64,000 bases of DNA from a virus (taxonomy: Duplodnaviria; Heunggongvirae; Uroviricota; Caudoviricetes). The notes beneath the pieces were generated by a model that ran no database searches, was not told the origin of the DNA, and was given only the letters and a program-made list of their open reading frames with translations. The DNA lies in the IMG/VR virus record IMGVR_UViG_3300021387_000091, positions 5,979 through 69,978 of that record; one strand, written 5' to 3'. Positions 4,133 to 30,600 of the stretch are shown here, piece after piece (the first letter of the stretch is position 1; each line of letters opens with the position of its first letter). Both the position numbers and the translations under genes were made by a program.

Positions 4133-5137
4133 ATGGATTCTAAATATAATATTATATTAGCATTATTAAATGATATCACAAATAATCCATCTAATAAAGC
4201 TGGTTCTACTGCTGCAATAGCAGAAGCAGATATAAAGAAAGATGGATTGGATAGAAAAGATATTCATGAAATTGCAGCAAATTCTGTTTTAGACCAGATG
4301 GGAAATCCTCTTCAGAAAATTCAGTTTACCTTTGGAAATCATCCTGAATTAATTGAAGATATTTCTAAATGGGCAGAAATGGATGTCACACCAATTCTTC
4401 AATCTGATAGACTTGATATTATACAAGAAATGCTCTCTGAATATCTCAAAGAGCATAATATAAAGGCGTTTGGAGAAGGTGGACAGTTTGAATCCGATTT
4501 AGACATAATTCCTGTAAAAATTGGAGACAAAACATATAATCTTTTATATCTATATTCTGAAGAAGAAAAAGAAAAGGGACTTATGGATGTAGAAGATATG
4601 GCAGATAATGAAGGTGCTATATTTGATTATTCGGATGATCCACAAAATGATTTATCTTTTTGAATGAAAGATACAACGATTGCTTTAAGAATCTTATTTA
4701 TAAATAAAGATGGAGTTGTAATATCTGCACATAATGGAGAACCTTTATCTGAAGAATTAATAAAAGAAGAATCTGAACCTATTTATTGAGTAATCGAATT
4801 AAATCAATCTGAACAAATACCTCAAGGTACTTACACAGACCTTGCTTTAAGAAAAGAACCTGATGCAGAACCTGAAGAAGACGATGATAATTCAGATGAA
4901 GATGAACATCCAGAATTAGGTGTAAATAGTCTTTATATATATGGCTCAAATGGAGAGGTTCAAGCTGAAATTCAGGCTGGTGCTAGAATATTTAGCAGAA
5001 AAGCAACTAAAGTAATTATAAGGAAAGCAAAACGTGCGTTCTTATCAAAATTAGATAAAGATTATAAATCATTAGGTCGTTATGTATTTAATGAAATTAA
5101 AGCACAAGATAATCGACCGATTGAATACGTTAATTAA
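4133..5137 (+). CDS. DUF192-domain protein (334 aa, one TGA=Trp) with a C-terminal domain paralogous to that of the upstream gene
   Basis: EKEKGLM...F[TGA]MKDT...ILFINKDG matches the DUF192 FWMKNT-type motif; the frame continues to TAA at 5135-5137. Confidence 0.75.
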
Positions 5138-5151
5138 TTCTTACGATATAT

Positions 5152-5185
5152 AACAAAAATGCCCTCCTATCTAAGACAGGAGGGC
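5152..5185 (-). terminator. Intrinsic terminator, U-tract on the minus strand
   Basis: GCCCTCCT/AGGAGGGC 8-bp stem (5161-5185) followed on the minus strand by ATTTTTG. Confidence 0.8.
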
Positions 5186-5262
5186 TAATAAAGAACTGAT
5201 TTGGGTAAATATATTTAGTGTAGCCACATATTAGTTCGTCACACTCTTTTTCCAATCGTTCT
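5152..5262 (-). ncRNA. Candidate structured small RNA (~110 nt)
   Basis: Lies between a consensus Bacteroidota promoter and a terminator. The 5' end AGAACGAUUGG pairs with CCAAAUCAGUUCU, the inner stem is AGUGUG/UACACU, and there is no ORF longer than 4 codons from ATG. Confidence 0.55.
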
Positions 5263-5267
5263 AAGTG

Positions 5268-5299
5268 CAAATTTAGTTAAAATAATCGAAAATTACAAA
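5268..5299 (-). promoter_or_regulatory. Bacteroidota sigma-A type promoter P1 (minus strand)
   Basis: TTTG (5299-5296), 20-nt spacer, TAAATTTG (5275-5268). Confidence 0.75.
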
Positions 5300-5327
5300 T
5301 TTATTTTTTAGTTAAAATATTTGCAAA
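5296..5327 (-). promoter_or_regulatory. Second tandem Bacteroidota-type promoter P2 (minus strand)
   Basis: TTTG (5327-5324), 20-nt spacer, TAAATTTG (5303-5296). Confidence 0.6.
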
Positions 5328-5351
5328 TATGAAAATAATTTACTATATTTG
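5320..5351 (+). promoter_or_regulatory. Bacteroidota sigma-A type promoter (plus strand)
   Basis: TTTG (5320-5323), 20-nt spacer, TATATTTG (5344-5351), about 60 nt upstream of ATG 5411. It shares the palindrome TTTGCAAA with the divergent promoter P2. Confidence 0.8.
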
Positions 5352-5410
5352 CGGGTGATTAATATGGAAATAAGAGAAGATAATATATAAACTTTTAAAA
5401 ATTAATTTTT

Positions 5411-5710
5411 ATGAAGCTAATTAAGAAATTTCAAGCTGGCGGTCCAATGGGTCAAGACGCTGGTGCTCAAGTTGATAATGGTGCAATGCAAACTGGTGCA
5501 GAACAAGACCCTATGATGCAGATTGTAGAAATGTTTGCACAAGGCCTTCAATCTCAAGACTGTAATCTTTTAGCACAAGGTGCTGAAATGTTTTTGTCAT
5601 TAGTTCAAGAGGCTCAAAGTAGTGCAGAACCAGCAGGACAACCTGTATTTGGCAAAGGTGGAAAAATGGTATCTCGCAAACAAGCAAAACTTCAGCTTAT
5701 TTGCAAGTAA
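5411..5710 (+). CDS. Small crAss-like protein with an N-terminal KKFQAGG motif (99 aa)
   Basis: Intact ORF from ATG to TAA, with its own promoter and terminator. Confidence 0.8.
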   Translation: MKLIKKFQAGGPMGQDAGAQVDNGAMQTGAEQDPMMQIVEMFAQGLQSQDCNLLAQGAEMFLSLVQEAQSSAEPAGQPVFGKGGKMVSRKQAKLQLICK

Positions 5711-5730
5711 TTATTAGATTTAGAAACTTG

Positions 5731-5764
5731 ACTCGGGATTGGGACACTCAGTCCCGAGTTTTTT
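5731..5764 (+). terminator. Intrinsic terminator
   Basis: ACTCGGGATTGGG/CTCAGTCCCGAGT stem (with G-U pairs) followed by TTTTTT. Confidence 0.8.
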
Positions 5765-5777
5765 AATTTATAATCGA

Positions 5778-8700
5778 ATGAGTCAAGTTAAAAAATTACA
5801 AACAGGTGGTACTCCAGAAATTCCTGGCATAAAGCCTTTAAAATTTGAACCGATTCCTAAATTTGAACCAGCTAAATCAACAACCGGATCCCTTACAATC
5901 GATGGAAAAACATATGAAGCTACTCCAGAACTAATTCAAGCTTTGACATCACATCTTAGTGGTTTTGGTGAAACAGCTGCTCCTCTTGCAGGATTAACTG
6001 CCGCGTTACAAAGAGGAGAAAATGTTGTATATGATTCAATTGGAAACACAATTACTGGAATGTCTGGACAATGGACAGGAATTGATGATAAGGCTAATAC
6101 AAAAAGAAATTCTGGAACAAGTCAATGAAGAAGAAATTGGCAAGCCACATTTAATACAGATGCACATAAGTTTAGAAATGCAGTAAAACTATTATCTGGA
6201 TTTATATACAATCCTTCTTCTGAAGATACATCAAACCAAAATCTTAAGGATATATACGGCAATAATATTTGGTATAAATACGATGTTGGTGAAGATGGAA
6301 AGAAAACTTGGTTAGATAACGCTTCTGAAAATCTATCTATTGACCAAAGATTAAAAGATTGAACATCTTATTTAGGTGGGACAGATGACGATAGAAAAGG
6401 ATTTAGACTCGGAAGTCAGTACGATGATCCTAAAGTAGAAGCAATTAAAAATCTATATTCAAGATACACTCCGGAAACTTGAGATGCTTATCTCAAAGAA
6501 ATTGGAAATAGAGCAAAAACAGATACTCTTAGACCAGAAGATATTGCATTTCTTGCTAATTTTAATATTGTAAAACCTGACGAATATGCCAACCAAGGAA
6601 CAGGTAACAGGTCTAGAATAACTTCTGCAGATAGAACTAAATGAAATAATGCTGGTTTTGGAGGACTAGCGGATTTACTTGGAGACCGTGCACATTTAAA
6701 TGATGATGGATCTCTTTCTTTGAACGATGGAGAAAGTTGAGGATGAAATCTTGGCGATTTAGATGGAAGAAATATTTGGTTTAACGATGATTTCTATAAA
6801 AGTAGATATGGAGCAGATGGTTCATTTGACCCATTTAGAGGATTAACACTTTATAGAAATAGATTATATACATCTTCTAATCCTGTTTTGGCTAGAATTT
6901 TAAATTCAGAAGGTGGATTTAACTCTATGATGAAAGCTGGAAATTGAACTGGTGCAGATAATGAAATATTAACAAGATTTACAGATGCAGCAAGAGAAAA
7001 TCCTGCGTATTTGCAAAATGATAGATATTCTACATTCTTATCTAATCCAAATTATAGATTTTCCGATTTGACTGGTCTAGTTAAAACACAAGACATGAAC
7101 GAAGATGATCAAATAATCCAATACATCGATCTATCGGATGATTCTTTAGTTGGGCCATATCGTCAATATAGATATAAATATGCACTGCTTGATAATAGAG
7201 GTAATCTAAAGAAACAATTAAATTCTGAGGATTTGATTGATATTCAAAATGGTTCTTCTAGAGAAGGCGGATTAAATACATATAGAAGAATATCAGGAAA
7301 CGAAAATCAGGTATATAATAATAGATATTACGAAGATATTCTCGATAAAAGCGGAAATGCAACAGGATTTAGATTTTATCGTAGTATATCAGATCCTAAT
7401 GGAGATGTTATAATGCATATGCCAAAAATATATGCATCTGATGCTGAAGATAAAGATATCGTTCTTCCGAAAGAAGTTGCTCAAGTTTTAATGCAAAATA
7501 AGAATTGACTTCAAAATGTTGTTGGAAATGCTCAAAATAAAGAGAATTTTATGAAAATTATATCTGGACTTGTTCAAAGTTGGTGAGCTAAATCCGACAA
7601 TCTTTGGTATAGAAATGAAGCGAAAGAATTAAGAAAAATGGGATTATCCGAAGAAGAGGTTCAAAAATTCTTACAAGCATGAAATCAAGCGAAACGAGGT
7701 AATCGTATGCAACGTAGACAAGATATGCTTGTAACTGCACCACAATTTAAAGATGGTGGTGTGATACTTGAACAATCTGGAGGTAGAGCAGGTGGATCAA
7801 AATCTGCAACTGGAGTTACAGAAAAACGAGTTAATACTATAAACACTAATCCAAATAATGCTGCAACTATAGGGGACAGTAAAAACTGAACAGATGCTGA
7901 TACAAAAGATGTTGTTGCATTACTTGGTGATTTAGGTTCTCTTGGTTTAGCCTTTGTTCCTGGAGCTAATGTTGGTTCTGCAACAGTTGGTGCAGCATCA
8001 TCTACAGCGAGATTTCTTGCTGATAAAGAAAGAGGCACAAAAGGCGCTGGATTAAATTATTTAGCAAACTTAGGAATGGATGCTGCTACATTACTTCCTC
8101 TTATAGGTGGTGCAAGTAAGACGGCAAAAACAGTAAAAGCGGTTAAGAACGCACTTCCATTAATAATTAAAGCCGCATCAGTTTACGGATTAGGTTCTGC
8201 AGTAGTTAATTCTGCAAATAAAATTGCTAATGGTGAAAACTGAACAGTTCGTGATGTCTCAATGGTTGTAAACGCTCTTACAGCCGGTGTTGGATTATCA
8301 AAGCAAGGTGGTCTTGGCAAATCTAAAGTTAAAGTAAAAGAACTTGAACCTGTCACATTAAAGAGTAAAGATGGAAATATATCCTTAACTTTAAACTCTG
8401 AAGAATTAAAACAGATTAAGGATCCAGACGCATTACTTGACGCAATGTTTAATAAAGCAAAATCATCTAATACCAATCTTACAAAGGAACAATTTGGTAA
8501 ACAATTTGATGTAAATTCTTTACTTAAAACAGCAACTAAATGGAAACCTGGTTGGAGTCCTAAAAATTGGTTTAGAAAAGAGTCTGTAAAAACATTTAAT
8601 CCAAAGGTAAAATCTGCAAAGCAAAACGTTGAAGCTGAAGAAGGTTCTTTTAAAGAGTGGTGGCACGGTGTAGGTAAAAAACAGCAGAATTATAACGAAC

Positions 8701-10028: not shown

Positions 10029-11946
10029 AAGGAAGTATCAAGTAGGGGGTATTGCATATACCCCCTATCTTCCTGCTCAAGCCGGTTCTCCACAAGAGAG
10101 TACTTCTAATTCTGGTTCGAGCAGTAAAAGTTCGCCAGAAAAAATAACTGGCACTATAAAAAAAGAAATTGTAGACTTATTAAAAGAAAATGGAATTCCA
10201 AGCGATGTTTCCACTTTTTTAAATACAGCTAATAAGTTTTTGTCAAAATCTCAAGCATTAAGTAATTATTCTATTTTTGGTGGAGACGACGATGATTATG
10301 ATTTAACCGATTTAATTAAAATTCAACAGTTAGTTAATGATGTTAAATATAATAATAATCTTAAAAACGAAGCGCTTAAACAAGTAACAAAAGAAGCGGC
10401 TGGTTCAGAAGTTGCGTTAACGGATTCTGGACATATTTATGCGTATAATTCTGATGGTAATATTGTAAAACTAACGCCAAAAGAATTCAAGGAAAAATCC
10501 AATGATTATCGTGCTATTACAAATAATGAATTACTTTATTTAAGAGAGCATGAAAATGGATTAGCATTTAATACAGGTATATTAAATGATTTAAATAATA
10601 CCATTGGTATGTCTACGATTACAAAGCAGTTGCGTGATATTATAAGTGCGTTTGGCTCTGATAAAGTGGGAGGATATACCACAAAAGATGCGGCTGTTAA
10701 TCGTGGAATGCAGGCTTTAATGCAAGCAGGACCTGATGGTTACTATCAGTTTACAAATGAAGAGGAATTGCGAGATGTAAATAGAGCTCTTCGCTACTTA
10801 TATAACAGTATGTCTGAAAATGCTAAAAATCTTCTTAGAGCAAAGACTGCAGTAGAAGGTGGAGATCCATCTGATCCAAATGACATTTCTAATCTGTTAT
10901 TACAGGCATTATATGAGCATACTTCTAGAGAAACAACTGTTAAATTTGATAAATCCGCATCCGATTATGATCCACTACAAAGTGGAAAGAAAGGTGGATC
11001 TAAAGATCCAGGTGATCAATTAACTCAAAATAATTATTTACAAAGAGTTGGTTCTCTTCGTGGAGATAGAACAATTGTTTCTATTGCTCCAAGAGCAGCT
11101 AAAATTTCAGATACGGCAGCACTTACTGCTCCTGCATTTTCTTTTGGTGCTGTCATTGATAGAAGTAATAAACCTGTTGATAAAATGAGCCTTGCAGATC
11201 TTTTAAAAGAAGGTTGAGCATTTGCAGCAGGAGAACCAAACGATGTTGTATTTGGAAATAAATTACTTAAATCATGAGAACGTGAAGCTATTATGTTTGA
11301 TGATAGTAGTAATTTAACCGCAGTAATGCTTCCTTATACAAATCAAGGTGGACATATTATGCCGGATTTTGATAAATTTGATGCTTTTAATAAACTTCAG
11401 TCAATTCTATCTAATAATTTATATGTTTCACAAACAGAATTAAATCAAGAGGCTAGAAAACTTGGAATCGATCCTTCTGAATTAAATTACGACCAAAAAA
11501 CAAACACAATTACATTTAAGGATACTATGGCGTTTTTGACAGTTAGTGGATACGCTGGTGATGATACTCTTGATTTAAATAAAGAAAATAAACAATGATT
11601 AGAGAAAGTAGATAAATCTGATGGACAACATCTAGCTGATTTCTACAATAATATGGTTAAATTTGGAAAGCTTCGTCCAGCAAAGAAAGGAAATGTTGAA
11701 ATTAAAGGATTCTCTAAATCTGAATCTGGTGATTTTTGGAGAGGAAACATTTTTATTCCTATGAAAAATGCTTTTAATGCAATGAATTTGAGTGGAATTG
11801 GAGAATACGTTCCTAAATCACAAGAAACTGATTTCTATGGTAGAGTTGCAGCAAGAGCACAAGAGAATGCAATGCTTCAATACCTTAAAGAGAATGATCC
11901 AAATTATGCTATAAATTCACAAATAGGGCAGTTTAGAAATGATTAG
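10018..11946 (+). CDS. Putative virion cargo protein (642 aa; TGA=Trp)
   Basis: Fragments at 10018, 11293 and 11653 are in frame; TAG at 11944-11946; N-terminal KRKYQVGG. Confidence 0.75.
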
Positions 11947-14900
11947 TAGTAAGAAAAATGACTGGGTTGCCATTAATTTAAACGCACCCGAAGGAATGTC
12001 TGTAGATGCTTTACATGGATATGGTATTACACCAGATAATACAGGTTTGCAATCTGAAGATTATTATAAGTCCCAAAAGCAAGTTATAAATACATTTACA
12101 GATAAAAATGGAAAATTTGACGAAGAGCGCTTTCATGCCTTTTATGAGAGCGCTCAGCGTTCATATAATGACTATCAAAAGGAAGATTTTACAAAGAAAT
12201 TATTAGATGATATTGAGTCTTCACCTTATGACATATTTTCTCTTGGAGATGCTAACATAATGGACACTTCTGCAATAATGTATAGAAGTAGAGATCCACA
12301 AAGAACAACAATGGGCCTTGGCAATGTTTATGAAGTAGGCACTCCAACCTTCGATGTTAGAGAAGTTGCTCAAGCAAATAAAGCAAGAGATGAATATGGA
12401 AATGTTTTGGATTGATCTCCTAATGATAGAGGTAATCCTTTTAAAGGTTTGTTTAGACCTGCAATGGCACTTGCTACATGAGATGAAGACGAATATGATG
12501 ATAATGGTAGACTTCTACATAAAGCTGGAGATCTTAAATACGATGAAAATGGAGATCCATTTTACGAAAAATTAGGAAAGAGAGAAGCTTACGGTAAAGA
12601 AACATTACATTATTGGGACACTATTACTAGAGACGATTCTGCTTGAAATAAAATAGATTTTATGGATAGTGACGGGCTTACTAAAAGTATTGGTGGTACA
12701 ATCGCGAAAACTGCTTTTTCATTAGTTCCTTATTTTATTCCTGGAGTTGGAGAAGTATTTGGATGAATCGGTGCTTCTGTTGCATTAAGTCAAACATTGC
12801 CAGTTCTTGCTAAAGGTTTGGATGGTATTATAACCGGAACTACTGATAATGAATTCGGAAGAAATATGACTTGATTAGAGAATGTTACTGATAGATTTAG
12901 AACATCTCAATCAAGAGCTTCTATGGGTAAATTCCTTAGTATGGAAAATCTTGGGGATATTATCAGTTCATCTGCTGGTCAATTATTTCAACAGAGAATG
13001 ATTGGACAAATTGGACAAAAACTTGTTAAATCTGGAGGCAATATGTTAAACGCTTCTAAGATTGGACAACGACTATCTCTTGGTTATATGGCTGCTACAT
13101 CTGCAACAGATACTTATCAAACATTTAAAGAAGCTGGAGCTGATGATCGTACTGCTGGTGTTGCCGTGCTTGGTTATATGGCTGGTTTATATGGTTTAAT
13201 GAACGTAGATTATTTCAAGGATATGTTGTTTACTAACACTTGGTTAGATGAAGATATTTCTCTCAGAGATACTATGCACCAACTTGTTAAAGAAACAACG
13301 ATAGAACCTTTTGAGGCTTTCGCCGCTTCTACAAGTAAACCAATGACTGAATTAGAAAGACGATTTGCAAGAACTAAACTTTATAAAGCTATTCAAGATA
13401 AAGTTGCTCCAACTTGGAAAAACTGGATAGAGTCTGCAAAAGCTGCTAGACCTACAATTCATCAGCTAGATAACGCTATTACTAAAGAAGGCGAAAAGGC
13501 TGGAATTTCAGCAGGAATGAGAGCTTCTATGTACCTTTCTAGAGCTATGAATGAAGGTATAGAAGAAACTATGGAGGAAGGTCTTACAGATGTATTTAAA
13601 GCAATAACACTAGGATTAGATTCTTTAGGAGTAAAAGTTACACAAGATGATAAACAACTTGATTTCGGACTTTCTCTACAAGATATGATGCTTCGTTATG
13701 CTTCGTCTTTCGTAGGTGGTGCTATTGGCGGTGCAGTATTTGAAGGATTTAATCATTGGGAAGGCGGACCTTATGATAGTTTACTTGAAAAATCATTAGT
13801 AGAACGTCTTGTATGGTACGAACGAAATGGATATGATAAAGAACTTAGAGCTCGGATTGATAATCTTTATCGTAAAGGAAAACTAGGAAATAAAAATCTT
13901 TCATCTAAAGGAAAATCTATTAAATCGGTTGATGGCAAAGGCGAAACCGTTGTGTTTGGCGAAGGAAGTGAATCTGACAATCAGAATCTCTTTGTTTATA
14001 ATGTTATTAATAGTTATCTTGACAGACTAAATAGCGCATTGGCCAACAACGGATTGTTCTCTACTGACAATGAAATCTTTACTAAAATTTGAGAATCTGT
14101 TAGAGAAAAACGCGGAAACAACGACGACGATCCCGAAGTAAAGCTTTATCATTTTTTGGAAGACATTGATACAGCAAAAGCATTAACTATTCAAGAAATG
14201 GGATTCTTAAATGCTGTTAAAGAGGATGCAGATAAACTTGCTTATGATATTCTTAGAAAAGATGGAGAAATAAAGAAAGTTAAAAACGATATTCGTAAAC
14301 GTAATAATATTACTGATGCCAATCGTTCTGAGGAAGATACATTGTTTAAAAACAATCAATATCTTAAGACTCTTGAAAAAGAACTTTCTGATATGAAAAA
14401 AGCCTGGGATCAAATCCTTAATGGAGAACGTAATGGTTATTACATGGGATATGCTGCTTTAATGGCAAATGGTACATATCTTGATCTTTATGATAATCCT
14501 AATCCAGCCGCAGATGTCTTTAAGAATTTACAAGAAGTTTTTCCTAAAACGGGTATTGAGAACTGGACAAAATATACTTACGGTTTGGAATTTGAGTCTA
14601 TAACCGATGAAGATCTCAAGAAGAAAATTCAAGATGAATATTCTGCTTATTTGAATTTATCTGGTAAAGATAAAATGCGTAGAATTTATGATATGCATAT
14701 TCAATTTTCAGAGAAGTTCGCTCCAGATATTATGGCAATCAATGAGAAATTTGCAGAAAAGAAAACGGTAGATCCAGTTACATATTTTACTGAATTTTTA
14801 GGTAAATACTCTGATTCTATTGGTCACACTGTTGGAAAACAAGTAGCTTTGGATTTAACAGAAGCATTTAAACAAGTTGATAAGTCAAAACTTCCAGAAC

Positions 14901-17900
14901 AATTAGCAGCGTATCAAAAAATGATGCTTCTTGAAGGTGCTTTAAATCAAGTTTTTCCGGATATTGCTGGATATGATTCAACACAAGATAAACTTAATTT
15001 TATACAAGCACTTAATCAATCTCTTACAGATGATAATGCAATTATGGATACAAAAATTATCCGTAATGGTATTATGAGAAGTATTGTAGATAAAGATATT
15101 AAGAGAATTGCAGATGAAAATAAAGCAAATAGTCCAGATAGTGTTAATTCTAAATTAAATAATAGGCTTGGAGAATTATCCAAAACTCTTATAAATTCCA
15201 CATCTGAATTAAATGTTTTCTTAGATAGTCTTTCTGACGAAGAAATTGATTCTGAACCAGCATTTAAAGATTATATTGATTCTATAGATAAAGAACAATT
15301 TTTATCTGAGAATGTTGAACAACTTGGGCAAGCAATAGAAAACATACTTCAAGATAAAAATAAGTTACTATCTGTTGGTTCAGAAAGAACTATCTTAATG
15401 AGTAAACTTAATGATATTCTTGATGCTATTGCTCGTAATAGTGATAGTGTCCAAAGTCTTTATGAAAATGCTATTAAATATCTTTCTGAAAATTCCGGAT
15501 TAACAGAATCTGAAGCAAAGTCTTTTATAGACAATGTTTTGTTCCCAGATGGAATTAATCTTGTAGATTTTACTGTTCAACAACAAAAAATCGAAAGAAA
15601 TAATAATTCTAATGCCATTGAAGAACTTCTTGAAAAGTTTGATATTTACACAGGAGGCAAGATTTACAATGCCATAAAGCTTTTAAGAGATCAAGAAGCT
15701 TATATGGAAAGACTTGCTAATCCAGAAGAATATTCTATTACAAGTAAAACCATTGAAAAAGAACTTGAAACAGCATTATCATTCTTAAGAGTAATTAGCG
15801 CTATTATCAATAGTACAATTGATGGTACAAATGAACAAATAAATCTTAGTAGAGATGGTGAGCAATTAGCTGTTACTGATGAATCTTTAGCACCACTTTA
15901 TAATAATCAATTACTTGACGTTATAAATAGAATAAATATTCTATTGGAAACTTCAAGAAAAAATCGGCTTAAGACTACAAAAGTTCAACAAGATACAATG
16001 TTGAATATGAATAAACTTCGTATTCAGTCTTTAAAGAACATTGGAAAAATTAATTTCGATGGTATTGAATTAGATTTTGAAAAGATTTGGGCTGATACTG
16101 GATTTAGTCTTTTTGATTTTAAACTTGATAAATCTAAAGATGCAGATAAAGCATATCGTCAATTCCAGTCAGAAATATCCAAACAGCTAAAGCCAATTCT
16201 TGCTAAATATCTTAGTACTGGAGAAATTTCTAAATTTATAAAAGTTCTTGTTGATAAATTTGGAACAGATGTTTATAGACAAGATCCTGGTGTATTTAGT
16301 GATGATCCAAATATTGGGATTACTCCATATTCTAATGTTACTTATTTGTTAACACTTGCTAGTATTGATGCTGCAGAATTTGATGCTCTTTGAAAGTCTG
16401 TTACTGGAGAAAATGCAGATTTAATTCCACTTTCTAGTCAGGAATATCTTGTAAGAGAAGCTTTTGCACATATTATAGACTTCAAGAATGGAAATAACAT
16501 TTTTGATTCTCTACATACGTATATCCAATCCAATTTCCCAGATTCTATTTCCCAACATAATAAAGATTATGTTAAAGGACGTGGTGTTGCTAAGAGGTTT
16601 ATAAATATTGATGGTATTGGAGGCACTGGTAAAACAACTGGTGTTGATTATTTGTTAGATAAGTGCTTAAAGAAATATTACGATGGAGTATCATCTACTG
16701 CATCTAGTATTACTCTTTCTGCTGCAGAGAATCTTCATTCTGCATTAAGATTAGGAACGGATAATATTAAACCAATAACAATCCAAGATATTTTTAACAC
16801 ACTTTCTAAGGATTCTAGTGGTAAAGTTGTTTTTGATTTTGATACAGCTTATGAAACCAATGGAACGTCATATCAACTTAAGAGAAATGCTGATGGTGAG
16901 ATTATAGATGGAAAAGGAAATAAGTTTAGCAACATCAACAATATTGATTTCTTATTTAATTCAAAAGACGGTCTTAGAGTTCTTTATATCGATGAATCTG
17001 GATTGGTAAATCGTCCTCAAATGGAGTTGTTACTTGAACTCGCTAGTAGATTTAATTTCTTTGTTGTTGGTTCTGGAGACGTTCTTCAAAATAAAGCACA
17101 AATAAAAACAAAGAAAGGAGATTATGATCAAACAGGTATTGAAGATCTTGTTTATCATAGAACTCCATCTTTAACAATTTCTATGCGTTCTGAAAATAAT
17201 GGTAAATATAAAAATACAGAAGCCATTAAAGACGTTTTAAGAAAAGTTAATAAGAATTTCTTTGTTGATCCTTCAATTCCAATTTCTAAGTTAAACGATG
17301 CAGTAAAAACTGCTATTAGTGAAGCCTTAGGTTCTACTTCTGAATTGAATTTAATTTATGCTGATTCTAATCTTGCAGGTGACCGTTTAATAAGAAGTTC
17401 AGAAGTTTTGGATTTCTCGAAAAAAATGCTTACTTTTGTAAAAGAATTAACCGAAAATGAGACCGATCCATCTAAGAAACATCAATTGGCGATTGTTGTT
17501 GATGACGAAACAAAAGCAAATAATTATCGAAATCAACTTGCTAGTTTTGGAGATTCTGTAGTTGTTATTGATTCAAAGAAAGTTCAAGGTAGAGAATATG
17601 ATTATGTTATTGTAGACAAACCATTTAATGATACTAATCCATATGATGCTCTTACCGATTTCTATACAATGATGACTCGCGCTAAGATAGGTAGTGCAAT
17701 TGTTGATGATAATGGCGTTATTAAGAGTCTTAATATAGGTACTCATCCTGATGATACAGCATCAGAACCTGTTTTAGGTGCAGATCCTGAAACAAGAGCT
17801 CAGTTGTTTAAAGAGTATTCCGAATGGCGTAGAGGTCTTATGGAAGATATTCCAGATTTTGTTAGAAAGACTACTACAAGTACACCTGCTGCTACTTCTA

Positions 17901-20900
17901 CTGGAGGTTCAACTCCATCTGGAGGTAATACTTCTGGAGGTGGCACAGGCACTCCAACTGTTGTTCTTAACGGTCCAGCAAAAGTAGATACTGAATTAGC
18001 GGAGCGTTTAAAGAGTAAAAAAGAACGTGACGCTTATTACACGCAACAATTACTTAATGGTAAAGCAGGACATCCATATTACCAAAAGTTGTTAGAAGCT
18101 AGAACAGCCAAAGTAGGAAAAAGCGGATATATTGATTTTGATACTTTTATATCAGAGTTAAAGGATTTTGATAACGATTTCTTTGAAACACACCCACTCT
18201 CTATTTTAAATGGAAAAACAATTGCAGGAACTGATTCTAAATTAGCTTATAGAAGTATAATTTCTGTAATTGCAAGGGCTATTTTAAATAACAAAGAAGC
18301 GAGTGGACGTTCTCAATTTATTCAATCAGCTACAGATTATCTAAAAGAAAAACTAAATAAAATTGGTTTATCTTCAGATACTTTCTGTACAGATCTTGCT
18401 TTAAGTTTTGAAAATGGAGGTTTCTTTGTATGTAATAATGGCCATATTTTCTATACATTTGAAACAAGTGGTAGGCAAGTTGCAGTACCAATTTCTGCTT
18501 ATACAGATCTTACATTAAATGATTCTTACTTTGAAAATCTTGAATTTAACATCGAAATTGGAAGTATTCCTGTAAGTACAATCGGTGAAGTTTTCGTTCC
18601 TGTTATTGATACATTATCCGAAATAGACGGAGTGGTCTTAGATAAGAATGGAAATCAATACGTTGGTGTAATTACATATACTGATGAACTTAAAAATGCC
18701 GCTTTAAGATTTTTTAAAAATCAAGATGATAGTGATGCGAGTAAAAGAGCTTCTGCAGCATTTAAATATTTACAAAGAAACTCTGGTAAATCAATGCTTG
18801 CTGTTTCAACTGCTTCGTCTCAATTTGAAGATGGTGATTCTGTATTTAATGTAAATTGGGAAGGTGGTAAACCTACTTCTGCAACAAATAAAGAATATGA
18901 TACTAAAAATTTTGCTCAAGAAACAGCAATGATTGGTATACAACAGATAACCAACATTCAAGATTGGTTTAGAGCAGTAAGTATTTTATACCGAGCCGTA
19001 AGACATAAGGATGACATTTCGGAATCAGATAGTGCGTGATTAGATGGATATTTTAATGAAGAGCATGTACTTGATAAATTCAATGCGGTAACTGCTGAAG
19101 ATCGAGTTAATATTGCTGCAAACTATAAAGTACTTGCTTCCTATAAAGTGTTAAATAAAGAAGCTGTTAATGGTCTTAGTTCTGCAATATTTAGATTTTT
19201 AAACTCAGAAAGAATTAACGAAAACTTTAGAGCAAGATTCTGGCAGAATTTTACTAAATGATTAGGTGACAAAAAATCAAACGATGATACAAGAATTCAT
19301 CGTAAAGGATTTGGAATTAACTTTAAAGATGCTGATGGAAATGCTTATATCTTTTCTGTTGTTCCTAAACCAAATCAAACTGGTTATGATATTCTATATC
19401 AAGACAGTAACAATCCAACATGACAAACTGTAGCAAGTAATCCAAGCGCAGAAATAAATACTCTGTTTTCCGGAACTAATTTTGATTTTGTTCAAGCTAT
19501 TACTAAAACACTTTCTGAAATAAGCAATAGTAATATAGCCACAGATGAAATTAAAAATCTCGTTTCATCAACCAATAATAATCTAGATGATTCTTTATCA
19601 AATGGTTCTATCATAGTATTTCCTATTGATTTATATACAGATAGTGAAACTGAGCAGATTGTTGGTTATTATTCTCCTTTTGAAACAGATATTTATAATT
19701 GAATGGTTCAGGGAGATACTGGCCAAGTTGAAATTGAACCTGGTGTTTTGGATGCATTATCTGAATTCTTACAGAATGATACAATCTTTAAGAATAATAT
19801 GTATAGAAATATTGCTGCAACTCCTAGAGAGGATGGTTTATCTGGATGGGCTCAATCTAAAATGGCATTAAACGGAGAAGATATTTATACAGATGTAACA
19901 AAGGTTATTGCTCCATTATATGCTCTTGGTACTACTTCCAAAGTAGATCCAGAAACAGAAACAGGTAAACAAATGCAATCTAAAGTTGGAAACTTCTTTG
20001 CTTTAAACAATGGAGATACAGGTCCTTCTCTTAACATAGACGAAGTGAATCCTCCAACTTTAAACGGAACAATTATTCATTTTGCAGATGGACAACCTAA
20101 AGTAAATAGAGATTGAATTTCAGAATTTACAACATCTGACGGAGATGGAGGTTCAATAGAATCTTTAAATGTTGGAAATAATACTATTACGCTTTCTAAC
20201 GGAACGTCTTATACACTTAGCAATGACGGATTAAACGCTCTATTAACTATTCCTGCTGTAAAATCTATAATTGATAAAAATCTTATCAAAGATGTTTCTG
20301 GAAAAATTACAATTGTTGGAAATACCATTTCTGTTGCATTAGATGGTGGTGGAAAGCAAACTTTCTCAAATGCCTATCTTATAGGAGTTAATGAAAATAC
20401 GTATAGCTTTGAAACTTCGTCTGGAGTAATTAGTGTCACATTAAATGAAGAAATGGCTAATAAACTTGGAAGAAGAACTCGTCAAGAAGCAATTAATCGT
20501 GGTATTTATTTAGGAGAACATCAAGATGAACTTGGGACTTCGTTCCATGTTTACTATACTCCATCAGATTTGATTTTAATTGAAGGAAATGATCCATCTA
20601 ATCCGACTCAAACAATTCCAATTAGTTCAATAACACCAACTGCAACAGCACTATATGCAGGAGCAATTAATTTCACAAATCCAGAAATTATTAACAATTT
20701 TGCAAAAGTATTTAACCCAAAACCTGATTTTTCAAAAGCGTCTAAGACAGATGTTGGTAATGAAATAATGCTTATTGCAGATTCTCCTGTAATTAACGGT
20801 TCTTGAATTCAAGGATATACAGATGATACTATCGATGAAGAAAAGTCTTATAGAATTCTTGCATATGATAATAATAGAATAGGAATTTATACAGACGATA

Positions 20901-21673
20901 ATTTATCTACATTTACTTGGATTTCTCGTAATGATAAATTTGATAGTAATGAAATTAAAGGGGATAAATCTAACGATGTTATAAATCTTATTGAAGGTAC
21001 TGACATTGATTGAAGTAATCCTGCAGAAGCTATTCAGCAAATTATTTCTATAGCAAACGAAGATGAAGTTACTAAATTTGCAGATTTAGAATCTAACGAT
21101 GATACTCTTGTACAATGGGTTTGACAAAATGGAACTATAGAATTATCAGAACAGCCGGATATAGAAATTGAAGGAATTTCTGCTAAATCTAGGAGAGCTA
21201 TTTATAAATATCTCAAAGGGATTATTGCTGGAGAAATTTCAGATGTTAAGTTCTTCAGAGAAGGTTCATTTGAAAATGAAATTACAGTTGAATTCAAGGT
21301 AGATGGTAGAACACAACAGGAAACTTACAAGGTTGCTGGAGATAGAGTTGTTCCTCTAAAACCAGAGGTTAAGGACGCTTTTGAAACAATTGAGGCAGAA
21401 TTTAATAACGCTTTTAATTCTGCACAAAATAGGTTCAATGAACTTCAAAATCAATTAGGTGTAGGAGTAACAGCAGATATGCAGGCTGAAATTCAAAATG
21501 AGTTAAATGCCCTTTCTATTCAGTTAAATACAATGCAGGCTGTTAAGGATGCTATTGCTGATCCAACAATTAATAAGAATTCAATTATATCAAAGTTAAA
21601 ATTATTAGATGCTGCCACTAGAAGGCTTGTATTACAATACTATAAAGCAAATAACGATAAAAATAAATGCTAA
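11939..21673 (+). CDS. Giant putative ejected protein (~3244 aa) with a central SF1 (RecD/Dda-like) helicase domain
   Basis: Seven fragments in one frame are joined by TGA; TAA at 21671-21673. Motifs: GIGGTGKT (16613-16636), TIQDIF, YIDE (~16991), GDVLQ, LTISMR, KKVQGREYDYVIV, YTMMTRAK. Confidence 0.8.
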
Positions 21674-21676
21674 ATT

Positions 21677-24600
21677 ATGGCGTGTGATGTATTAAGACAA
21701 TATTCAAAGGATGATTATTTTAACATATATGCTGAACTTGAATTAGCAGAAGGTGATCCGATTGCTCTTTCAGATGTGTTTGAGAGTATACATCAGACAT
21801 ATGAACGATCTATAGCGGATGCAATACAAGCTGCTATTGAGAATGGTACATTTGATGAAAATTGGGATATTAAACCGGGGACTTTACCATCCCCGGTTCA
21901 AACCCAATTTAATGTAAATGGTGCTAAGAATTCTGAAATAGAACCAGATCAACTATCTGATTATTATTACAATAAAAAGAATGGTTATGTTCGTCTTAGT
22001 AATATGACGAAGAGATTTTTTGAAGACATTATTTCTAAGACAGTATTTAACAAAGACACAGGAAGCTTTTTTAGACCAACAACAAACTCTATAAATCAAG
22101 CTTTGTATGATTATAAAGTTGAATTACTTAATAAACTTTGGAATTTTACTGGAAAATCATACATGGCAGAATTAGTTGCTAATGAAGATAACCTAACATT
22201 AGTTATTAGTAGGACTCTATCGGATTTTGCTACAATGTCTACAATAGATGGTGCAGATACTATATGGGATGATTATATTATCTTAAAGCAATTTGATAAG
22301 CTTTTGAATGATTATGCACCATTTATCAAGAAGGATGCTGCTTTTGAGAATACGAATTATCAAAGTAAGAATATGTATAGATGGGATCCTTCCGGTACAT
22401 ATAGACAAAGTTGAACAGATTCTGAGGATTCAGATATTTCCAAAACAACATCCCCTTTAGTTAGATTACTTGCTGATTATTTTACTTGTGCAGATGCTAG
22501 AGGAAATGAAATAAATAGGCCAATCGGTTTTACAACATTTAATATTGCAATGGCTACACTTGCAAAGTGAATGCATGAAAATAGGCAATGATTAGATGTT
22601 CAAGAAGTCAATAGAGATATTAGAAAGAACGGTTTATCTGCAGATTTAGGAAAAGCGATTGATGTTTATATTGCACATGCTAATCCAAATGATTCACTAA
22701 AAGAAGTTCTTTATGGTATTAAAAAGCATGTCTTTAATAAAAATAACGCTATTCCTCTTAGCATTAAGCAAGCATTTGCCAATCAATTCTTTATTACCGC
22801 CAAATACTCTTATATGGCATATCGTCAGAATTATGAAGAAGGTCAATTTGATATAAACGGACAGTATTTGGAAGATTCGTTTGTTAATATAAAAACAATG
22901 AATCTTATGAAAACCTTCCAAAACAAAGTTTGGTTTTATCAATGAAAACCAGAATTATTTGCAAGGCTTAAAAATAAACATGGAATTGTAACATCTGTTA
23001 AAGATGGAATTATAACAATTAAATTTGATAGTACAAAAGGTTGGGGAGATGGATTTAATATTACTGTTACTAGAGACGGAGAAGGAATTTCTATTAGAAT
23101 ACCCGATACCAAAGTTATAGATGATAATGTAATGATTTCATTAATTCAAGATACACTTGATATTCTTATTCCTTCTGATTATCAAAATGTTCTTGATGCA
23201 ATGTCTGTTTCAGCACCTGTGCCAGCTACATTATTTAATACTTTTATTCAACCTATAGCATTAATGCTTGCAGCTTCAGAGGAAGGCTCTGATTTTCCTT
23301 CTGTTTTCAGTTATAACGAAGATTCCGAATTAATTAATACATATCACTTTCAACAAAGATTTATACAATCTGGTAAATTCCAAAGTATTGTAGATGGTAT
23401 TAATGACCTTAATGTACTTAAAAATGGTGAGGGAAACAATCTTCCTATTTATCAATTAGCTCCTGCTATATTTGATATTTTTACAAATATCGACGAAATA
23501 GCAGATGCCGCGAATAAGGATAAAACAGGCAAATCTGTTGGAGGAATTACTTTAGAAAGTACTGTTTCTAAAGAACTTGGTAATTGATGGGCAGCTAAAG
23601 AAATTTCTAGTGTTTTTGGAGAAAATCTTTTTGTAAAACATAGAGATTTACTTAAAAAAATTATTGTTCGCTCTGATATTAAAATTGGAAATATAACAAA
23701 ATCATCTGATAAACTTACAGCATCTGAAGTTGCCTCTGTAGCAATCTTTAATGATTTTTATCAAAATCTTGTAAGAGAGCCAGATGCAAATAATCCAGAC
23801 GCATTAAGTGGAACCATTCTCATTCAGCCTATTACTTACTCTGATAAGAAAACACACTTTCTTCCTGCAATTGACTTAACAAAGCTCTATTTGTCTGTTG
23901 GTTCTGATCGTGTAAAAGCAATTGATGTTTTTAGAAGACTTGTTAGACCTGATTTAGAAGGAAGATATAAATATGTACAAGCCGTTCAAAATGAAATAGC
24001 GAGAACTAGAGGCGAGAAAACAAAAGCACAAATATATAACCAGTATATCAGATTTAGAAACGCTATTCAAAATGCAGATTATGATTCCATAGAAGTTGTT
24101 GATAAATCTGGTAGAGTTTGGAATGGGAGCGATCTAATGAACGTCTTATTAAAAGATATTGTTTCTCCGAACGTAAACAATTATTCTAATTTTGATTCTC
24201 TTACTGGATTTAAGGCGGTATCTAAAATTCTTTCTAATTTAAATCAATTTGAAGATCCAATTAAGTTACTTCGTGCAATCTTTAAGAGTGCAGGGACAAT
24301 GCTTAATGAAGATTTTGATATCATTCAACTTAAGAATGGAAATTTACAAGGAAACGAATCCCTTTATTTTGCTGCTACAACATATACGCCTCAAGGTATT
24401 GAAAATTACTTAAAACAAGAAAAACTTAAATTTGCATTTGACTTACAGGAATATGGTGTATCAATGGATGTATTAACACACCCTGAATTAAGAAGGTATA
24501 TAGATACATTCTCAAAGGATACACAACGCATATGATTTGATCCTCACTCTAAAATAATGCGTTTATTTAGAGTGTTTCAAACTGAAGCAGATGGAAAATT

Positions 24601-27600
24601 AACTGAAATATTTCCGACTCAAGCTGACTTTGAAAACGATGTATTTAAACACAGGTCAGATTTAACTGTACAACTTAATCCAATGCTTGAAGGATTTTTC
24701 CTAGCAAATTCCCTATTTGGAAGTCAATTTAATGATGTAATGTTTGGTGGAACTGAAGGATACATTCCAAAGTTTTCAGGATCTGTTGATTTTGATAATG
24801 CCAATCAATCTATTATTGGACAAATGATGGCATCTCGTCTTGCTAATGAATTTAAACGTACTACCTATGGTGGTGCTGTTAAACGTAAATTTGCGACAGG
24901 TCTAAAATTTGGCGTTGCTAATAAGATTAGATTTTCTATTGTTGAGGATGATGAGCCAAATCTTTCTACATTAAGAGGTAATACAGAAGGACAAGTAGCA
25001 CAAGATGGTTCCGGTTGGGTTCTTCCTTTCCTTGGCAGAATGATTAATAAATCTCTTGTAGATTCTCCTGTTGGAGATGTTAGAAAAACTATTGCTGGAT
25101 GAGTTGATCCAAGAACTGGTACACAAGTTCACTTTAAATGGGCGGAAACAACAATTACTGCTGATATGCGTCAAAAAGCACAAGGTAATGGTTCTGCTGA
25201 AGTAATGTATCGTAAAGGAACAAGTGCTTTTGATATCACAAATAAATTTAAAGCGATAAGAGATTTAAATCGTTATTATGATATTAGGAAAAATGCTCCA
25301 GTTATTATTATAGAAGACGAACAAATAACAAGAACAAAACCTATATATCGATATGACTTAGATTCTGGTCAGTATTGGAAACTTGAAGCTATCAGAAACA
25401 CAGATGCTGGTTTTGAAACAGCTTGAAGTCTTGTTGATAAAAATGGAGAATTAGTCTATCGAGATGGTAAATCTGTTAAAGCTGCTTGAACAACTCAAAT
25501 TCATACTTTATATGATTTAGATCAAGCTCTTGGTGGTGCTTTTGTATATGAGCTTGATGAAAATGGAGATATGGTTACATCTGAAGGAGTTCATGATATT
25601 CTTACTAATATTATTTGTACTAATGATATGAAAGAGGATTTCATTGGCTATATTGTAAATCATTCTTCTGCAAAAGCTGGTGCAATTAATGTTAATGATT
25701 ACTCTACATTAAATGACGATGATACAACACTTAATCATCACTATTTAAATGCAACTGGTATTGGTGTTCAGATGGATGCTGACCACGAAATGGATTTTGC
25801 ATCTGTTACGGAAATGTCACAGATGGTTTCTCTTCTTACACAAAGTGGTACTAATATTGAGTTAGTAAACAAAATTTATTCGGACATTGGACAAGTTGCT
25901 GCAGAAGCCATGCGTGATATTTTAGCTGCTGTAGAAAGCGATGATGCTGATATTTATCGAATTATAGGTAAGGCGCTTCTTGATACATTCGATTCTGGAA
26001 GAAAAGAAGAAATTGGTCTTGCTCAAGCTTTTATCAGAAATGCGCAAAATGCAATTCTTAAAGAGAGAGGTTTAGATAACATAATTCTTCCTTATTCTGC
26101 AGAAAGTGTTAGAGGTTCATTTGTTGCAGCTGTTACTTCTTTGATTAACAAAAAGGGTATTAAACGTAAATATGCTGGGTTCGGTGGCGTTCAGGTTCCT
26201 GCCGATAAAACTATGCAGCATTATCGTTATCTAGCAAATGGAAAAGAAATAATTACCGATTATGTAGGTTTGAGAGATAGAATTAGACCAATATTACAAC
26301 AAAACGGAATTACTTGGGAACAAGCTTCTACGCAACAAATCATAAACGGTAAATCCAATCCATTCATAATACCAATAAATCAAAAAACTGCTCAATTTGA
26401 AGACACAGTTGTTTATAAATTAAAAGGTTCTACTGAAGAAGGGACTGTTCTAAAAATCCAAACAGCTGAAGATTTAGATTTAGTCCATAATCTATTAGAT
26501 CCTAATTTATATGACATTTCGCTTTGAACAATTAAGCCAAGAGAGCTTGCACAAAGTGATATTCGATTTAATTCTGAATTTGGAGAATTCTCTGAATATG
26601 ACATTGATGCTGTTCGTGCATCGTTCTATTTAAACGACTTAATTGATGTTGCTGAAGGAAAGAAAACGTTAGAATCTATTCCGTTCTTAGAAAGAAAACT
26701 TGCTGTGCTTAATGCAGCAATAGTTGATTCTGATTTAGTAACTCCTGATGGTACACAGATAGCAAGCACTACTGATTTTACTGTACTTAATGCAAATATT
26801 CTAAGAAATCTTAAAAAAGTTTGTGTTCATAAAGCACAAGAAATCTTTAGAAATATTGGAAAAAATGATATTCCTATACAAATGTCAATGGTTAATGACG
26901 ATATCAATCAAACTAGAGAATTAACAATTGATTGAGGCGTTATGCCTTATATGATTAAAGTTGATAGGAATTACAAAAATCAAGTAATGCAGGTTATTAT
27001 TGGACGTAGAAACTTTGCTAAATTTGGAATCGGAAAGGGTGACAAGCTTGCAGACATTAAAGAACAAGGTTCTAAATTCTTCTATAACAGATTGTTAGAA
27101 AAAACAGGTACCATTGATAAAGTAAAAACACAGATTCCGATTTCGCGATTTGATGGTGTCTTTCAATTAAGTAACGGTGAAAATATGCTTGTGTTAGTCG
27201 GAGATCAAAGTGACAACTTACAACATTTTAATCCTTCTGATGATTTTGTTATTTCTGATAATGCAGTATCATATAAAGGACAGATGATAGTAGATAATAC
27301 TAAACTTAAAGGTCTTGCAAAAGTAACAGATTTTAATTACTTCACTTATGTAAATGATACAACTGGAGAATTGATGCCTGTTATAATGATTCCGGACTAC
27401 GATGTTTTTGACAGAATTGCAACATCTGAATCTGTTACATCTTCTTTATATGTGTATAATGGAACTAATTGACTTGATGCTATAAAACACAAATATGCTT
27501 CTAAATTTAAGGATGATAAATTAATTGAAGATTTTACAACAGATTCTGGAGTTTTAATTAATAATAATCCTTCCGAAACAATTTATGAAGAATTAAATAA

Positions 27601-30600
27601 GAACGAACATAAAATTAGAACAAAAGCATTAAGCCGCAAAGCAGATACGCTTTATAGAAATTTCTTAACACAACTCAACTATATTCAAACACGTATTCCT
27701 TCTCAAGCTATGCAGTCTACCACAAATATAGAAGTAATAGACTTTGCAGATACTGATACCAATTATATTTGAGTACCTAAAATGATATTTAAATTACAAG
27801 GAAGTGATTTGGATATTGATAAGGCGTATTGTATGGGTTATGACGTAGATGATTCAGGAAATATCTATGCTATGTCAGATTTAATATATAAATCTAAATA
27901 TAATGTAGATGATATCCTATCTTTACCTAAGCCCACATATGGCAGTATGCGTTTTAATTATACTGGAGAAGGATCTGATGTTCAATACAATGTCACAAAG
28001 GATATTGATGAGATAATGATTAACGGAGGTTCTGATTTTGAAATTTTACAATACTTAATTGGATTAATGCAAAATAATCCCGGAAGAACTGTATCTATTC
28101 AGTATGCTCCTCAAAGCAATGCTTTTAGAGACAGAATCAAAAATATTGTTGACGATGTTAATATACACGAAAACTCTTTTAGATCTGAATCTGAAATAGA
28201 ACATGCCCTTCGTAATCAAGTATTATCTTCTGCAAGAAGAGTAATGAATAATCCTGCATCTCAGTTGGACGCTTATACACCTATTGCTATGAAAGAGCCT
28301 CGTGATGCTTCTAAACTAAATACTGCATTAGGTTCTAAAGAAAAAGAAATGACTCTAGATAACGCAATGTCTATCTTTATTATGCAAATTCAGAATATGT
28401 CTGGTAAGGAAGTTATTGCTATGACTGCTACCGGTATTAAATCATACTTTATGGTAACAACATACTTTAATACTCTAGCAAAACAGATTGAAAACGATTT
28501 GGCACAATACATTAAAACAAGAGATATTAATCTCATGAACAATATTGTATCTGCTTTAAATGAAATGACATTCAATGGTAAGCTAGATGATACAGAAGTT
28601 CCTTATCTATATACATTTGCTAACATTAATTTCTCAGGAATTCTTGACATAATAAATAGTACACCAGAGTTAAGAGAATCATTAAGGTATGTACCTTATA
28701 CAACACAACTAGAAATTACTCCTGCGAATAGTAGTTTTGAAGTATATGTTAATAATGGAACATTAGAACTAGTAAGACTAATAGAGGATTTGAATCAAAG
28801 AGCTAATGGCAACATTTGACAAATTAATGATAAAGGCAATTATGAATATTTTGTTGTTAATGCGCCGGATTCATTAAGTGCGTTGCTATCAGCAGCAACT
28901 GATAACGCTAAAGAGCTTATTCTAGACAAACTTAATGCAACATCTAAATTTGCAGACATTTATACAACGCTATTGTCACAAGGCGTACCATTTATAAAAA
29001 TTGCACAAATGATGACAAATAATGCATTTAGAATTGTTGCAAAATACGCTCAAAGTAATATATTTGATACAAGTACTTCTGGTTTTAGAGTACAAAATGC
29101 TATTGATTTCGTTCTAAATAAAAAATCTCTTCCAAATATTAGTCAGGGATTGTTTGAAAGGTTCCTCACGGATAATTTTGGAATAACCACCGAACATAAA
29201 CAGAAAGGATTCTTAAAAGCTATTTTTGAAGAAGGATTGAAATTTAAAGACTCTAAAGATAAGGTAAGTAGTCTTCCAGAATTAATTTATGAAGAATTTC
29301 TAACAAGAACTGGACAAACAGAAACTGAATTATTAGAATCTTTAAAAGATAGAAATCTATTATTAAACACTAATAAAAATTCTGCATTAATTATTGGAAC
29401 AATAATTGAAAAAGGAAATAATAATTGGAAAAATGAAATTGCAAGAATTATTCTTGATATGTTTAGTGATATAGACCATCAATCATTAGATGGAGTTACT
29501 GTTGCAGATTATTTGAAATCTGTATTATTACAAAATTTAAGGCAAGGTATTCAGAATTATGCAAATAATACCAGTTCTCCTGTAAATGATAATAATCAAC
29601 AATGAGAACTAGAGCCTGAATACGATCCAATTGAATCAATGATGGATATGAGTGAAGAAGATTGAGAAAATGCTGTTCAATCTAATGCTCAGAGACAGGC
29701 TTATTGATTTAATGGCCCAATCAGAGGAAACGAATTAACAAGACTTTATCGTTATGCTGTACAATATTTTATTCCAAAAACAGAACTTTGAAATGCTTTA
29801 AATAAAGAAAGTCAACGTAAAGCAAAAATGGACTTTGAAAAGTTAAGTTCTCAGATTCTTTATGCTGCACAAGAAATGAAAATCTTAGGTTCAATTGGCA
29901 GTATCAATCAAGGTTTAAGATCTAAAGATTTTGATGAATACAAATTTGCAGCAAATATAGCTAAATTCATAAATCAAGCTTATATTAGTAGAGGTAATGG
30001 AGAAATTACAGAAGAATTTGATTTGTTTAGATTTTTAGGCGATAAAGCATATCATGACAGACACATTAAATATTATGATAAAGTTAAATCAAGTATAAAC
30101 ATTCTTAGAGCATTAGATGCTACTGCAAACTTTAAAGAAATGTTTAATTATGTTTTAGTGAATCGCAAAGTAATTGAGCATTCTGCATCTATTAAACTTG
30201 AAAGAAGTATTGCAAAGTCGTTTGTTAATTCTGTTTCTAAGATTGATGAAAATAGCAGCATTAATCGTGGTTCAACCCTTGTTTTAAATGATCTAGAATT
30301 TAGAATATTAAGTCAATATGTTAGAGATTCTATTGTTTATAACTTCTTTAGAAATCTTGATCATTTAAGATTTGATGTTCCAGCTGGCGAACAGTATTAT
30401 GATCCAACTAAAACAACAACAGGTGAATCAGAGTTAATAAATGCTCGTTCAACACGTTCATTTGATATGAGCAATATTCATAATCTTGCTACATTTAAAC
30501 ATTTAATGGATTGATATATTATTCCAAAACTTCAAATGGATACAAGATTTAAAGATAACGCTTTTATCAAGAATCTTACTAGAGATAGATTTACAGATGA

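Follow-up and report, generated by a model that had tools for sequence, protein, structure and literature searches.

The stretch of DNA considered here, which we call the window, comprises 64,000 nucleotides (bases 5979–69978) of a 176,795-bp viral contig that carries a 107-bp terminal repeat. Two giant frames of 3,244 and 3,446 amino acids (11939–21673 and 21677–32017) open up only if TGA codes for an amino acid, with 15–23 in-frame TGA codons in each, and TGA is sense throughout the window. The genome encodes 18 tRNAs, clustered outside the window, one of which is a 94-nt tRNA(UCA) (genome 80187–80280); within the window itself, ARAGORN reports 0 tRNA or tmRNA genes. For the window's first ORF, the match is to PF25731, the Crassvirus muzzle protein. 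Together, the recoded frames, the tRNA(UCA) and the muzzle match identify a large opal-recoded crAss-like phage, a member of a group that is among the most abundant of gut viruses. The plus-strand virion block contains a sole sizeable gap, the 273 nt from 5138 to 5410, which lies between a DUF192-domain gene (a protein encoded at six IMG/VR loci) and a short gene for a 99-aa protein. On the minus strand of this gap, we find the elements of a small RNA gene, and their coordinates are collected in Table 1.

Table 1. Features at and around the RNA locus (window coordinates unless marked as genome; RNA parts are given for the minus strand).
Feature	Position	Strand	Remarks
Convergent upstream gene	4133–5137	+	334 aa, DUF192 domain, two in-frame TGA codons
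Intrinsic terminator, GCCCTCCTGTCTTAGATAGGAGGGC then ATTTTTGTT	5152–5185	-	terminator call on minus strand only
Helix P1, 3' arm, CCAAAUCAGUUCU	5192–5204	-	two bulges; MFE fold and covariation
Internal loop, 3' side, AAAUAUAUUUAC	5205–5216	-	MFE fold; leading UAA conserved
Inner hairpin: P2 (AGUGUG/UACACU), junction, apical P3	5217–5245	-	comparative; universally conserved core of the family
Internal loop, 5' side, AAAAAG	5246–5251	-	MFE fold
Helix P1, 5' arm, AGAACGAUUGG	5252–5262	-	MFE fold; at predicted transcript 5' end
Proximal promoter P1, TTTG-N20-TAAATTTG	5268–5299	-	perfect pattern match; predicted start ~5262
Upstream promoter P2, TTTG-N20-TAAATTTG	5296–5327	-	perfect pattern match
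Divergent host-type promoter of the 99-aa gene, TTTG-N20-TATATTTG	5320–5351	+	perfect pattern match; kept in all relatives
99-aa gene (MKLIKKFQAGG...)	5411–5710	+	constant divergent neighbour of the RNA gene, ~150 nt apart; own terminator 5730–5760
Purine-rich leaders	window 5357–5385; genome 134748–134790, 168963–168990, 172973–173000

A first-pass annotation, made from the letters of the window, had proposed that two tandem host-type promoters of the TTTG-N20 class drive a structured RNA from the minus strand, and both promoters are indeed present as perfect matches, arranged such that the TTTG of the −7 box of promoter P2 doubles as the −33 element of promoter P1. The window as a whole holds five perfect matches to the promoter pattern against 3.7 expected by chance, and three of the five fall within the 84 nt from 5268 to 5351. 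The third of these is the promoter of the 99-aa gene, which shares the palindrome TTTGCAAA with promoter P2 on the other strand; such divergent pairs of promoters occur commonly in the genome. The annotation had also remarked that the start expected from promoter P1 falls at the 5' end of the closing helix, and this geometry is borne out well beyond the window: in 16 of 18 copies of the element, copies with a different helix P1 sequence among them, the distance from the start of the TAnnTTTG (−7) box to the first paired base is exactly 13 nt. From this fixed spacing, we infer that the 5' end of the transcript coincides with the start of the helix across the family. A second, upstream box (at −41) is found in just 4 of the 18 copies. 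Outside the window, genome 96460–96380 (minus strand), beside the tRNA cluster, contains one more perfect promoter, TTTG-N20-TATCTTTG, that leads straight into a hairpin, ACTTCTGGGA...TCCCAGAAGT; this hairpin could be a second small RNA or a tRNA-operon leader.

What would an RNA starting at this position look like? It would fold into a rod consisting of an 11-bp helix P1, an asymmetric, A/U-rich internal loop of 6 and 12 nt, a 6-bp P2, a 4/2-nt junction and a small P3, which is weak or degenerate in this window. The body is ~77 nt long with ~21 bp, and the whole RNA ~108–111 nt. We recover the closing helix, the bubble of AAAAAG opposite AAAUAUAUUUAC and the inner stem that the first-pass annotation had described, as well as its G+C-rich terminator with a U-tract, an 11-bp hairpin (5185–5161) followed by AUUUUUGUU; the palindrome UAAAUAUAUUUA that it had pointed out is present in the bubble but is specific to this window. 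Without the terminator, the body has a minimum free energy of −11.2 kcal/mol and a z-score of −0.72, which is not thermodynamically unusual in this window, and it is the terminator that brings the z-score of the whole element to −3.84. In other words, the fold of the body is unexceptional by energy, and thus the reality of the feature rests on comparison with relatives. The absence of an ORF, also claimed previously, is correct in that no frame is conserved, but a mechanical 46-aa TTG frame does exist on the minus strand (5130–5270). It crosses the terminator and is broken in relatives by 1–2-nt indels, and such indels in the loops exclude a conserved ORF.

The same element is found in 20 distinct relatives, always in single copy and always divergent from a gene for a protein of ~99 aa. 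A few near copies were added by pattern scans of IMG/VR and metagenomes, and further contigs were reached through homologues of the 99-aa protein. Wherever a relative has sufficient upstream DNA, a covariance model yields a match of 72–131 bits at the syntenic position; in these relatives, the element lies ~150 nt upstream of the 99-aa gene, whatever gene lies on its far side, and each of four complete genomes has a single copy. The model also finds the element in two genomes, L001 and L003, in which it sits behind an extra inserted gene. Many relatives have a variable slot of this kind, with one or two unrelated extra genes separating the RNA terminator from the DUF192 gene (L001, L003, L081, L086, L089, L090, L092 and L094), and the pair formed by the RNA and the 99-aa gene stays fixed beside this slot of the virion block. 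Three relatives recoded at TAG, L006 and the GenBank entries MT835470 and MT835492, do not have the element. All carriers are TGA-recoded, a link to recoding that is confounded with phylogeny. Among 185,579 prokaryote genomes scanned with the core pattern, the core hairpin has one match only, in a phage contig of 171,962 bp (L099, JBGVHB010000128.1) that carries a third version of the RNA. This contig was deposited in a metagenome-assembled genome labelled Roseburia sp., which is most likely a binning artefact and no evidence for a Firmicutes host. An exact 17-mer scan of IMG/VR was set aside: 58 of its 61 matches are ERLEKE-type coding coincidences. So far, then, the RNA family is confined to a single clade of crAss-like phages, TGA-recoded and from animal guts.

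The support for the fold comes from the alignment of these relatives (20 distinct sequences, 31 pairs, with slid-partner and 500-shuffle controls). Standard pairs occupy 96.6% of the pair cells, against 33–42% when the partners are slid, and double-sided changes occur in 17 of the 31 pairs; the observed values are reached by 0 of 500 shuffles. All four helices covary. Helix P1, with five pairs showing double-sided changes, exists in three unrelated versions (AGAACGAUUGG/CCAAAUCAGUUCU; CGAU..GUUAU/AUGGU.AUCG; and UAAUC/GAUUA). P2 is 99% paired and shows compensatory changes around a G:U pair that is invariant in 20 of 20 copies, and the terminator helix has double-sided changes in 7 of 10 pairs, with U:G pairs that fit the minus strand. 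Over the whole alignment, the pair cells include 56 G·U against 2 A·C; it is therefore in the minus-strand RNA that the helices are selected, and on the plus strand they would be mismatched. The universally conserved core reads AGAGUGYG-AAYGA-[P3]-UAC-URCAYU, followed by UAA. By comparison, relatives differ on the 5' side of the internal loop (AAAUCG, AAUAAG, ACAAAG, AAGCAU, UUAUAG), which in a divergent subgroup may be as short as ~2 nt. In the main group, the 5' 18 nt show almost no change, and the RNA body is 65–84% identical to that of relatives, compared with 50–61% for the adjacent 99-aa coding sequence.

Might there be no RNA gene at all, but just divergent promoter DNA next to a bidirectional terminator, the apparent fold being a DNA-level or plus-strand feature? 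The RNA data contain no transcript of the element, but such data usually lose short RNAs, and the frequency of divergent promoter pairs in this genome would also fit such a reading. Against it, the helices covary, the excess of G·U over A·C cells places the structure on the minus-strand RNA, and the spacing from promoter to helix is fixed; we regard this explanation as highly improbable. The stem conservation and covariation in relatives that the first-pass annotation had named as a check, by way of a covariance model of the syntenic site, are thus both found, and its central claim of a structured small RNA made from host-type promoters stands, with promoter position, covarying helices, G·U strand signal and terminator all conserved. 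We are confident that the element is a genuine non-coding RNA gene, transcribed on its own, and that it represents a new phage sRNA family.

In four metatranscriptome runs, the flanks of the locus (within 4500–6300) are covered, and 5171–5353 is without a contig, in libraries of a type from which short RNAs are usually lost. No RNA run was listed with the sequence words of the RNA, and neither of these results bears on its expression. The neighbouring 99-aa gene has a transcript pattern of its own. In two independent metatranscriptome studies, it appears as a 390-nt self-closing contig, with 5764/5765 joined to 5405, that begins 6 nt ahead of the ATG and runs as far as the U-run of the 5730–5760 terminator. 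This contig suggests a discrete, abundant ~360-nt transcript with joined ends; a circular RNA, template switching by reverse transcriptase or a tandem duplication in those strains are possible causes. The promoter at 5320–5351 predicts a start at ~5357, in disagreement with the 5' end at 5405. Several genes with perfect host-type promoters, this one included, carry a GAAAUAAUAAGA-type purine-rich leader a short way 3' of the TATATTTGCG box (Table 1), possibly a signal for translation or stability that highly expressed phage genes have in common. The motif ATATAWAAC upstream of the start codon of the 99-aa gene was dropped, as it is not recurrent in the genome.

If the RNA gene is real, what does its product do? 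One explanation follows from the position of the gene: the RNA could be a cis-antisense RNA or insulator against read-through from the upstream operon, in the manner of lambda OOP. A late-operon transcript that read past the weak plus-strand side of the hairpin would complement the sRNA along its full length, and cleavage of the duplex by RNase III and/or collision with polymerases that start at the sRNA promoters would uncouple the upstream genes from the 99-aa/cargo unit. The RNA and the upstream gene point toward each other, and in all relatives the RNA terminator reaches close to the upstream stop codon, at a distance of 1–15 nt (34 nt in one), whatever the upstream gene is. Read-through is plausible, since no plus-strand terminator is called at the hairpin and the plus strand has C·A mismatches in relatives. 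However, the near-invariance of P2 and the junction is left unexplained, because cis-antisense pairs are complementary whatever their sequence, as are the G·U helices that exist on the minus strand only. The RNA also overlaps no coding sequence. The earlier description of it as antisense to the structural block accordingly holds for orientation only: the upstream stop codon occupies 5135–5137, and the RNA ends ~15 nt past it. Finally, 5168–5405 is bridged by no RNA contig in the four runs, a weak hint at most. On balance, we consider an OOP-like role unlikely, if the foremost of the alternatives. The likeness to lambda OOP, P22 sar and phage P1 c4 is nonetheless real, in that all are short phage RNAs with their own promoter and an intrinsic terminator, convergent with a neighbour; unlike these RNAs, the crAss RNA stays clear of the coding region, keeps its sequence and fold beyond what antisense pairing needs, and belongs to a lytic phage without a lysogeny circuit.

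Another explanation is that the RNA acts in trans by pairing with host mRNAs, through a seed in the 5' arm and loop or in the A/U-rich 3' loop. Many enterobacterial sRNAs carry seeds at their 5' ends, and the near-invariance of the 5' 18 nt in the main group would also fit such a seed; given the weak fold, helix P1 could open to expose it. Yet the candidate seed is base-paired, in a helix that covaries and is wholly replaced in two subgroups, and conservation within the molecule is lowest in the single-stranded loops. The phage sequences offer no conserved target either. The longest Watson–Crick complement in the phage's own genome is 12 nt, lies inside a coding sequence and is about at chance level; pairing with the 5'UTR of the 99-aa gene is no better than with shuffles; and pairing with the 18 phage tRNAs, including tRNA(UCA), reaches at most 10 nt with G·U allowed. 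A comparative scan of four genomes did return three co-located sites, in the genes for DNA ligase, a coiled-coil protein and a structural protein, which we rejected: all three are on the non-coding strand of the gene, and these are therefore sense-to-sense resemblances rather than targets. For example, the minus-strand DNA ligase gene contains at 43160–43225 a conserved GGAAAAAGAATAT, coding for DPEKEY, that resembles the 5' loop region of the RNA in the same sense in all four genomes, and this stretch produces a false 'conserved target' on the opposite strand. A host-directed base-pairing RNA is improbable in our view, somewhat more so than an OOP-like one.

The first-pass annotation had favored, tentatively, a 6S-like RNA, that is, a mimic of an open promoter that sequesters the host sigma-A RNA polymerase. 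The outline of the molecule invites the comparison: it is a small rod with an A/U-rich internal loop, predicted to be made by host polymerase from strong host promoters, and the Rfam model of 6S-Flavo is also short (108 positions), which is similar to the length of the phage RNA with its terminator included. The search against 6S and 6S-Flavo (RF00013 and RF01685) that had been suggested does not bear the idea out. At the gathering score, no Rfam family matches the element; at E≤10, there is no match to 6S, 6S-Flavo, SRP RNA, Y RNA or a Bacteroides motif in the region; and RF01685 has no match in the whole genome. Sub-threshold matches to PyrR, atoC and JA04 were discarded as terminator-driven. 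Moreover, the body has only ~21 bp, in helices much shorter than those of 6S RNA; the internal loop is small (6/12 nt), asymmetric and not conserved, with a variable 5' side that is possibly down to ~2 nt in the divergent group; and conservation is centred on the inner hairpin rather than on the loop. We consider a 6S-like decoy very unlikely.

A further possibility, suggested by the RNA anti-CRISPRs (solitary, repeat-like phage RNAs), is that this promoter-driven small phage RNA is a CRISPR-derived decoy that titrates tracrRNA or Cas9. The 5' end of the RNA, GAACGATTGGAAAAAG (5246–5261), matches 14 of the 16 positions of GAACCATTGGAAACAG, the 3'-terminal part of the type II-C repeat BfragL47 of Bacteroides fragilis (repeat sequence from PMC6390457 and PMC9367070), with p=0.005 against shuffles for this single comparison; the comparison was, however, picked after the fact. 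The similarity is confined to these 16 nt: the 3' half of the RNA is unlike the head of the repeat (p mostly >0.2), the motif is missing from two divergent subgroups, and the 17-mer in question recurs widely as an ERLEKE coding word. The part of BfragL47 that is matched is also not the part expected to pair with tracrRNA, and the functional part of the repeat is left uncovered. Since the rest of the RNA is unlike the repeat and subgroups lack the motif, the match is probably chance, and we rank a CRISPR decoy as the least probable of the explanations, extremely so. BfragL47 itself has a TAtcTTTG box just upstream of the matched part.

We are left with the conserved hairpin itself. Helix P1 is maintained as a helix only, P2 and its fixed, asymmetric junction are nearly invariant, the loops vary, and no phage transcript with conserved complementarity is found. 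Such conservation would be expected of a hairpin bound by a protein, and for these reasons we propose a hairpin that is recognized by protein. In this proposal, host sigma-A RNA polymerase would start at ~5262, 5 nt past the consensus TAnnTTTG box, and the transcript would fold into the rod of helix P1, internal loop, P2, junction and P3, ending at the terminator at 5185–5152. The stable inner hairpin, presented on the closing stem P1, would act in trans and be recognized by a phage or host protein, such that the RNA would serve as a component of an RNP or as a sequestering decoy rather than as a base-pairing antisense RNA. Judged from the pattern of conservation, protein binding is our best guess for the mode of action, held tentatively and at somewhat short of an even chance; the joint claim, of a real sRNA gene that works by protein binding, we likewise put a little below even. 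We recognize no known protein-binding RNA motif in the element. The alternative role that the first-pass annotation had mentioned, a protein-binding or anti-defence RNA, may apply. In a more specific and more speculative form, which we consider improbable, the RNA would be a phage-made protein sponge, made from strong host promoters, whose invariant inner hairpin, supported by the stabilizing stem, sequesters a host factor during infection; a defence protein or a protein of RNA metabolism would be candidates, with sigma-A polymerase less likely.

There is precedent for a structured phage RNA that works through proteins. The phi29 packaging RNA (pRNA), of ~120 nt, has, like the crAss RNA, its 5' and 3' ends paired into a bulged helix, and it acts by binding proteins, a mode that is only proposed for the crAss RNA. 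Unlike pRNA, the crAss RNA has no three-way junction or conserved loop–loop pairing, its loop palindrome being limited to the window. The crAss-like phages use a terminase, and we know of no RNA that this requires. Closer in its expression signals are the chromosomal sRNAs of Bacteroides, such as GibS, which have TTTG / TAnnTTTG promoters, an intrinsic terminator and lengths of ~100–150 nt. The crAss RNA shares their promoter type, terminator and size class but has no sequence or Rfam relation to them. To our knowledge, the Bacteroidota hosts have neither Hfq nor ProQ.

No conserved non-coding RNA of crAss-like phages is reported in the literature that we searched or in Rfam 15, and this RNA very likely represents a previously undescribed phage sRNA family. 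As such, it is a candidate addition to the RNA family databases, and with no function assigned to it, it would join them as another orphan phage RNA motif. If the protein sponge proved true, it would be a device specific to the opal-recoded branch of the crAss-like phages. What these phages offer is a compact and well-delimited RNA gene adjoining a highly expressed gene of the virion block, known so far only from the TGA-recoded lineage, and with it a handle on RNA-based regulation or counter-defence in the phages of Bacteroidota.
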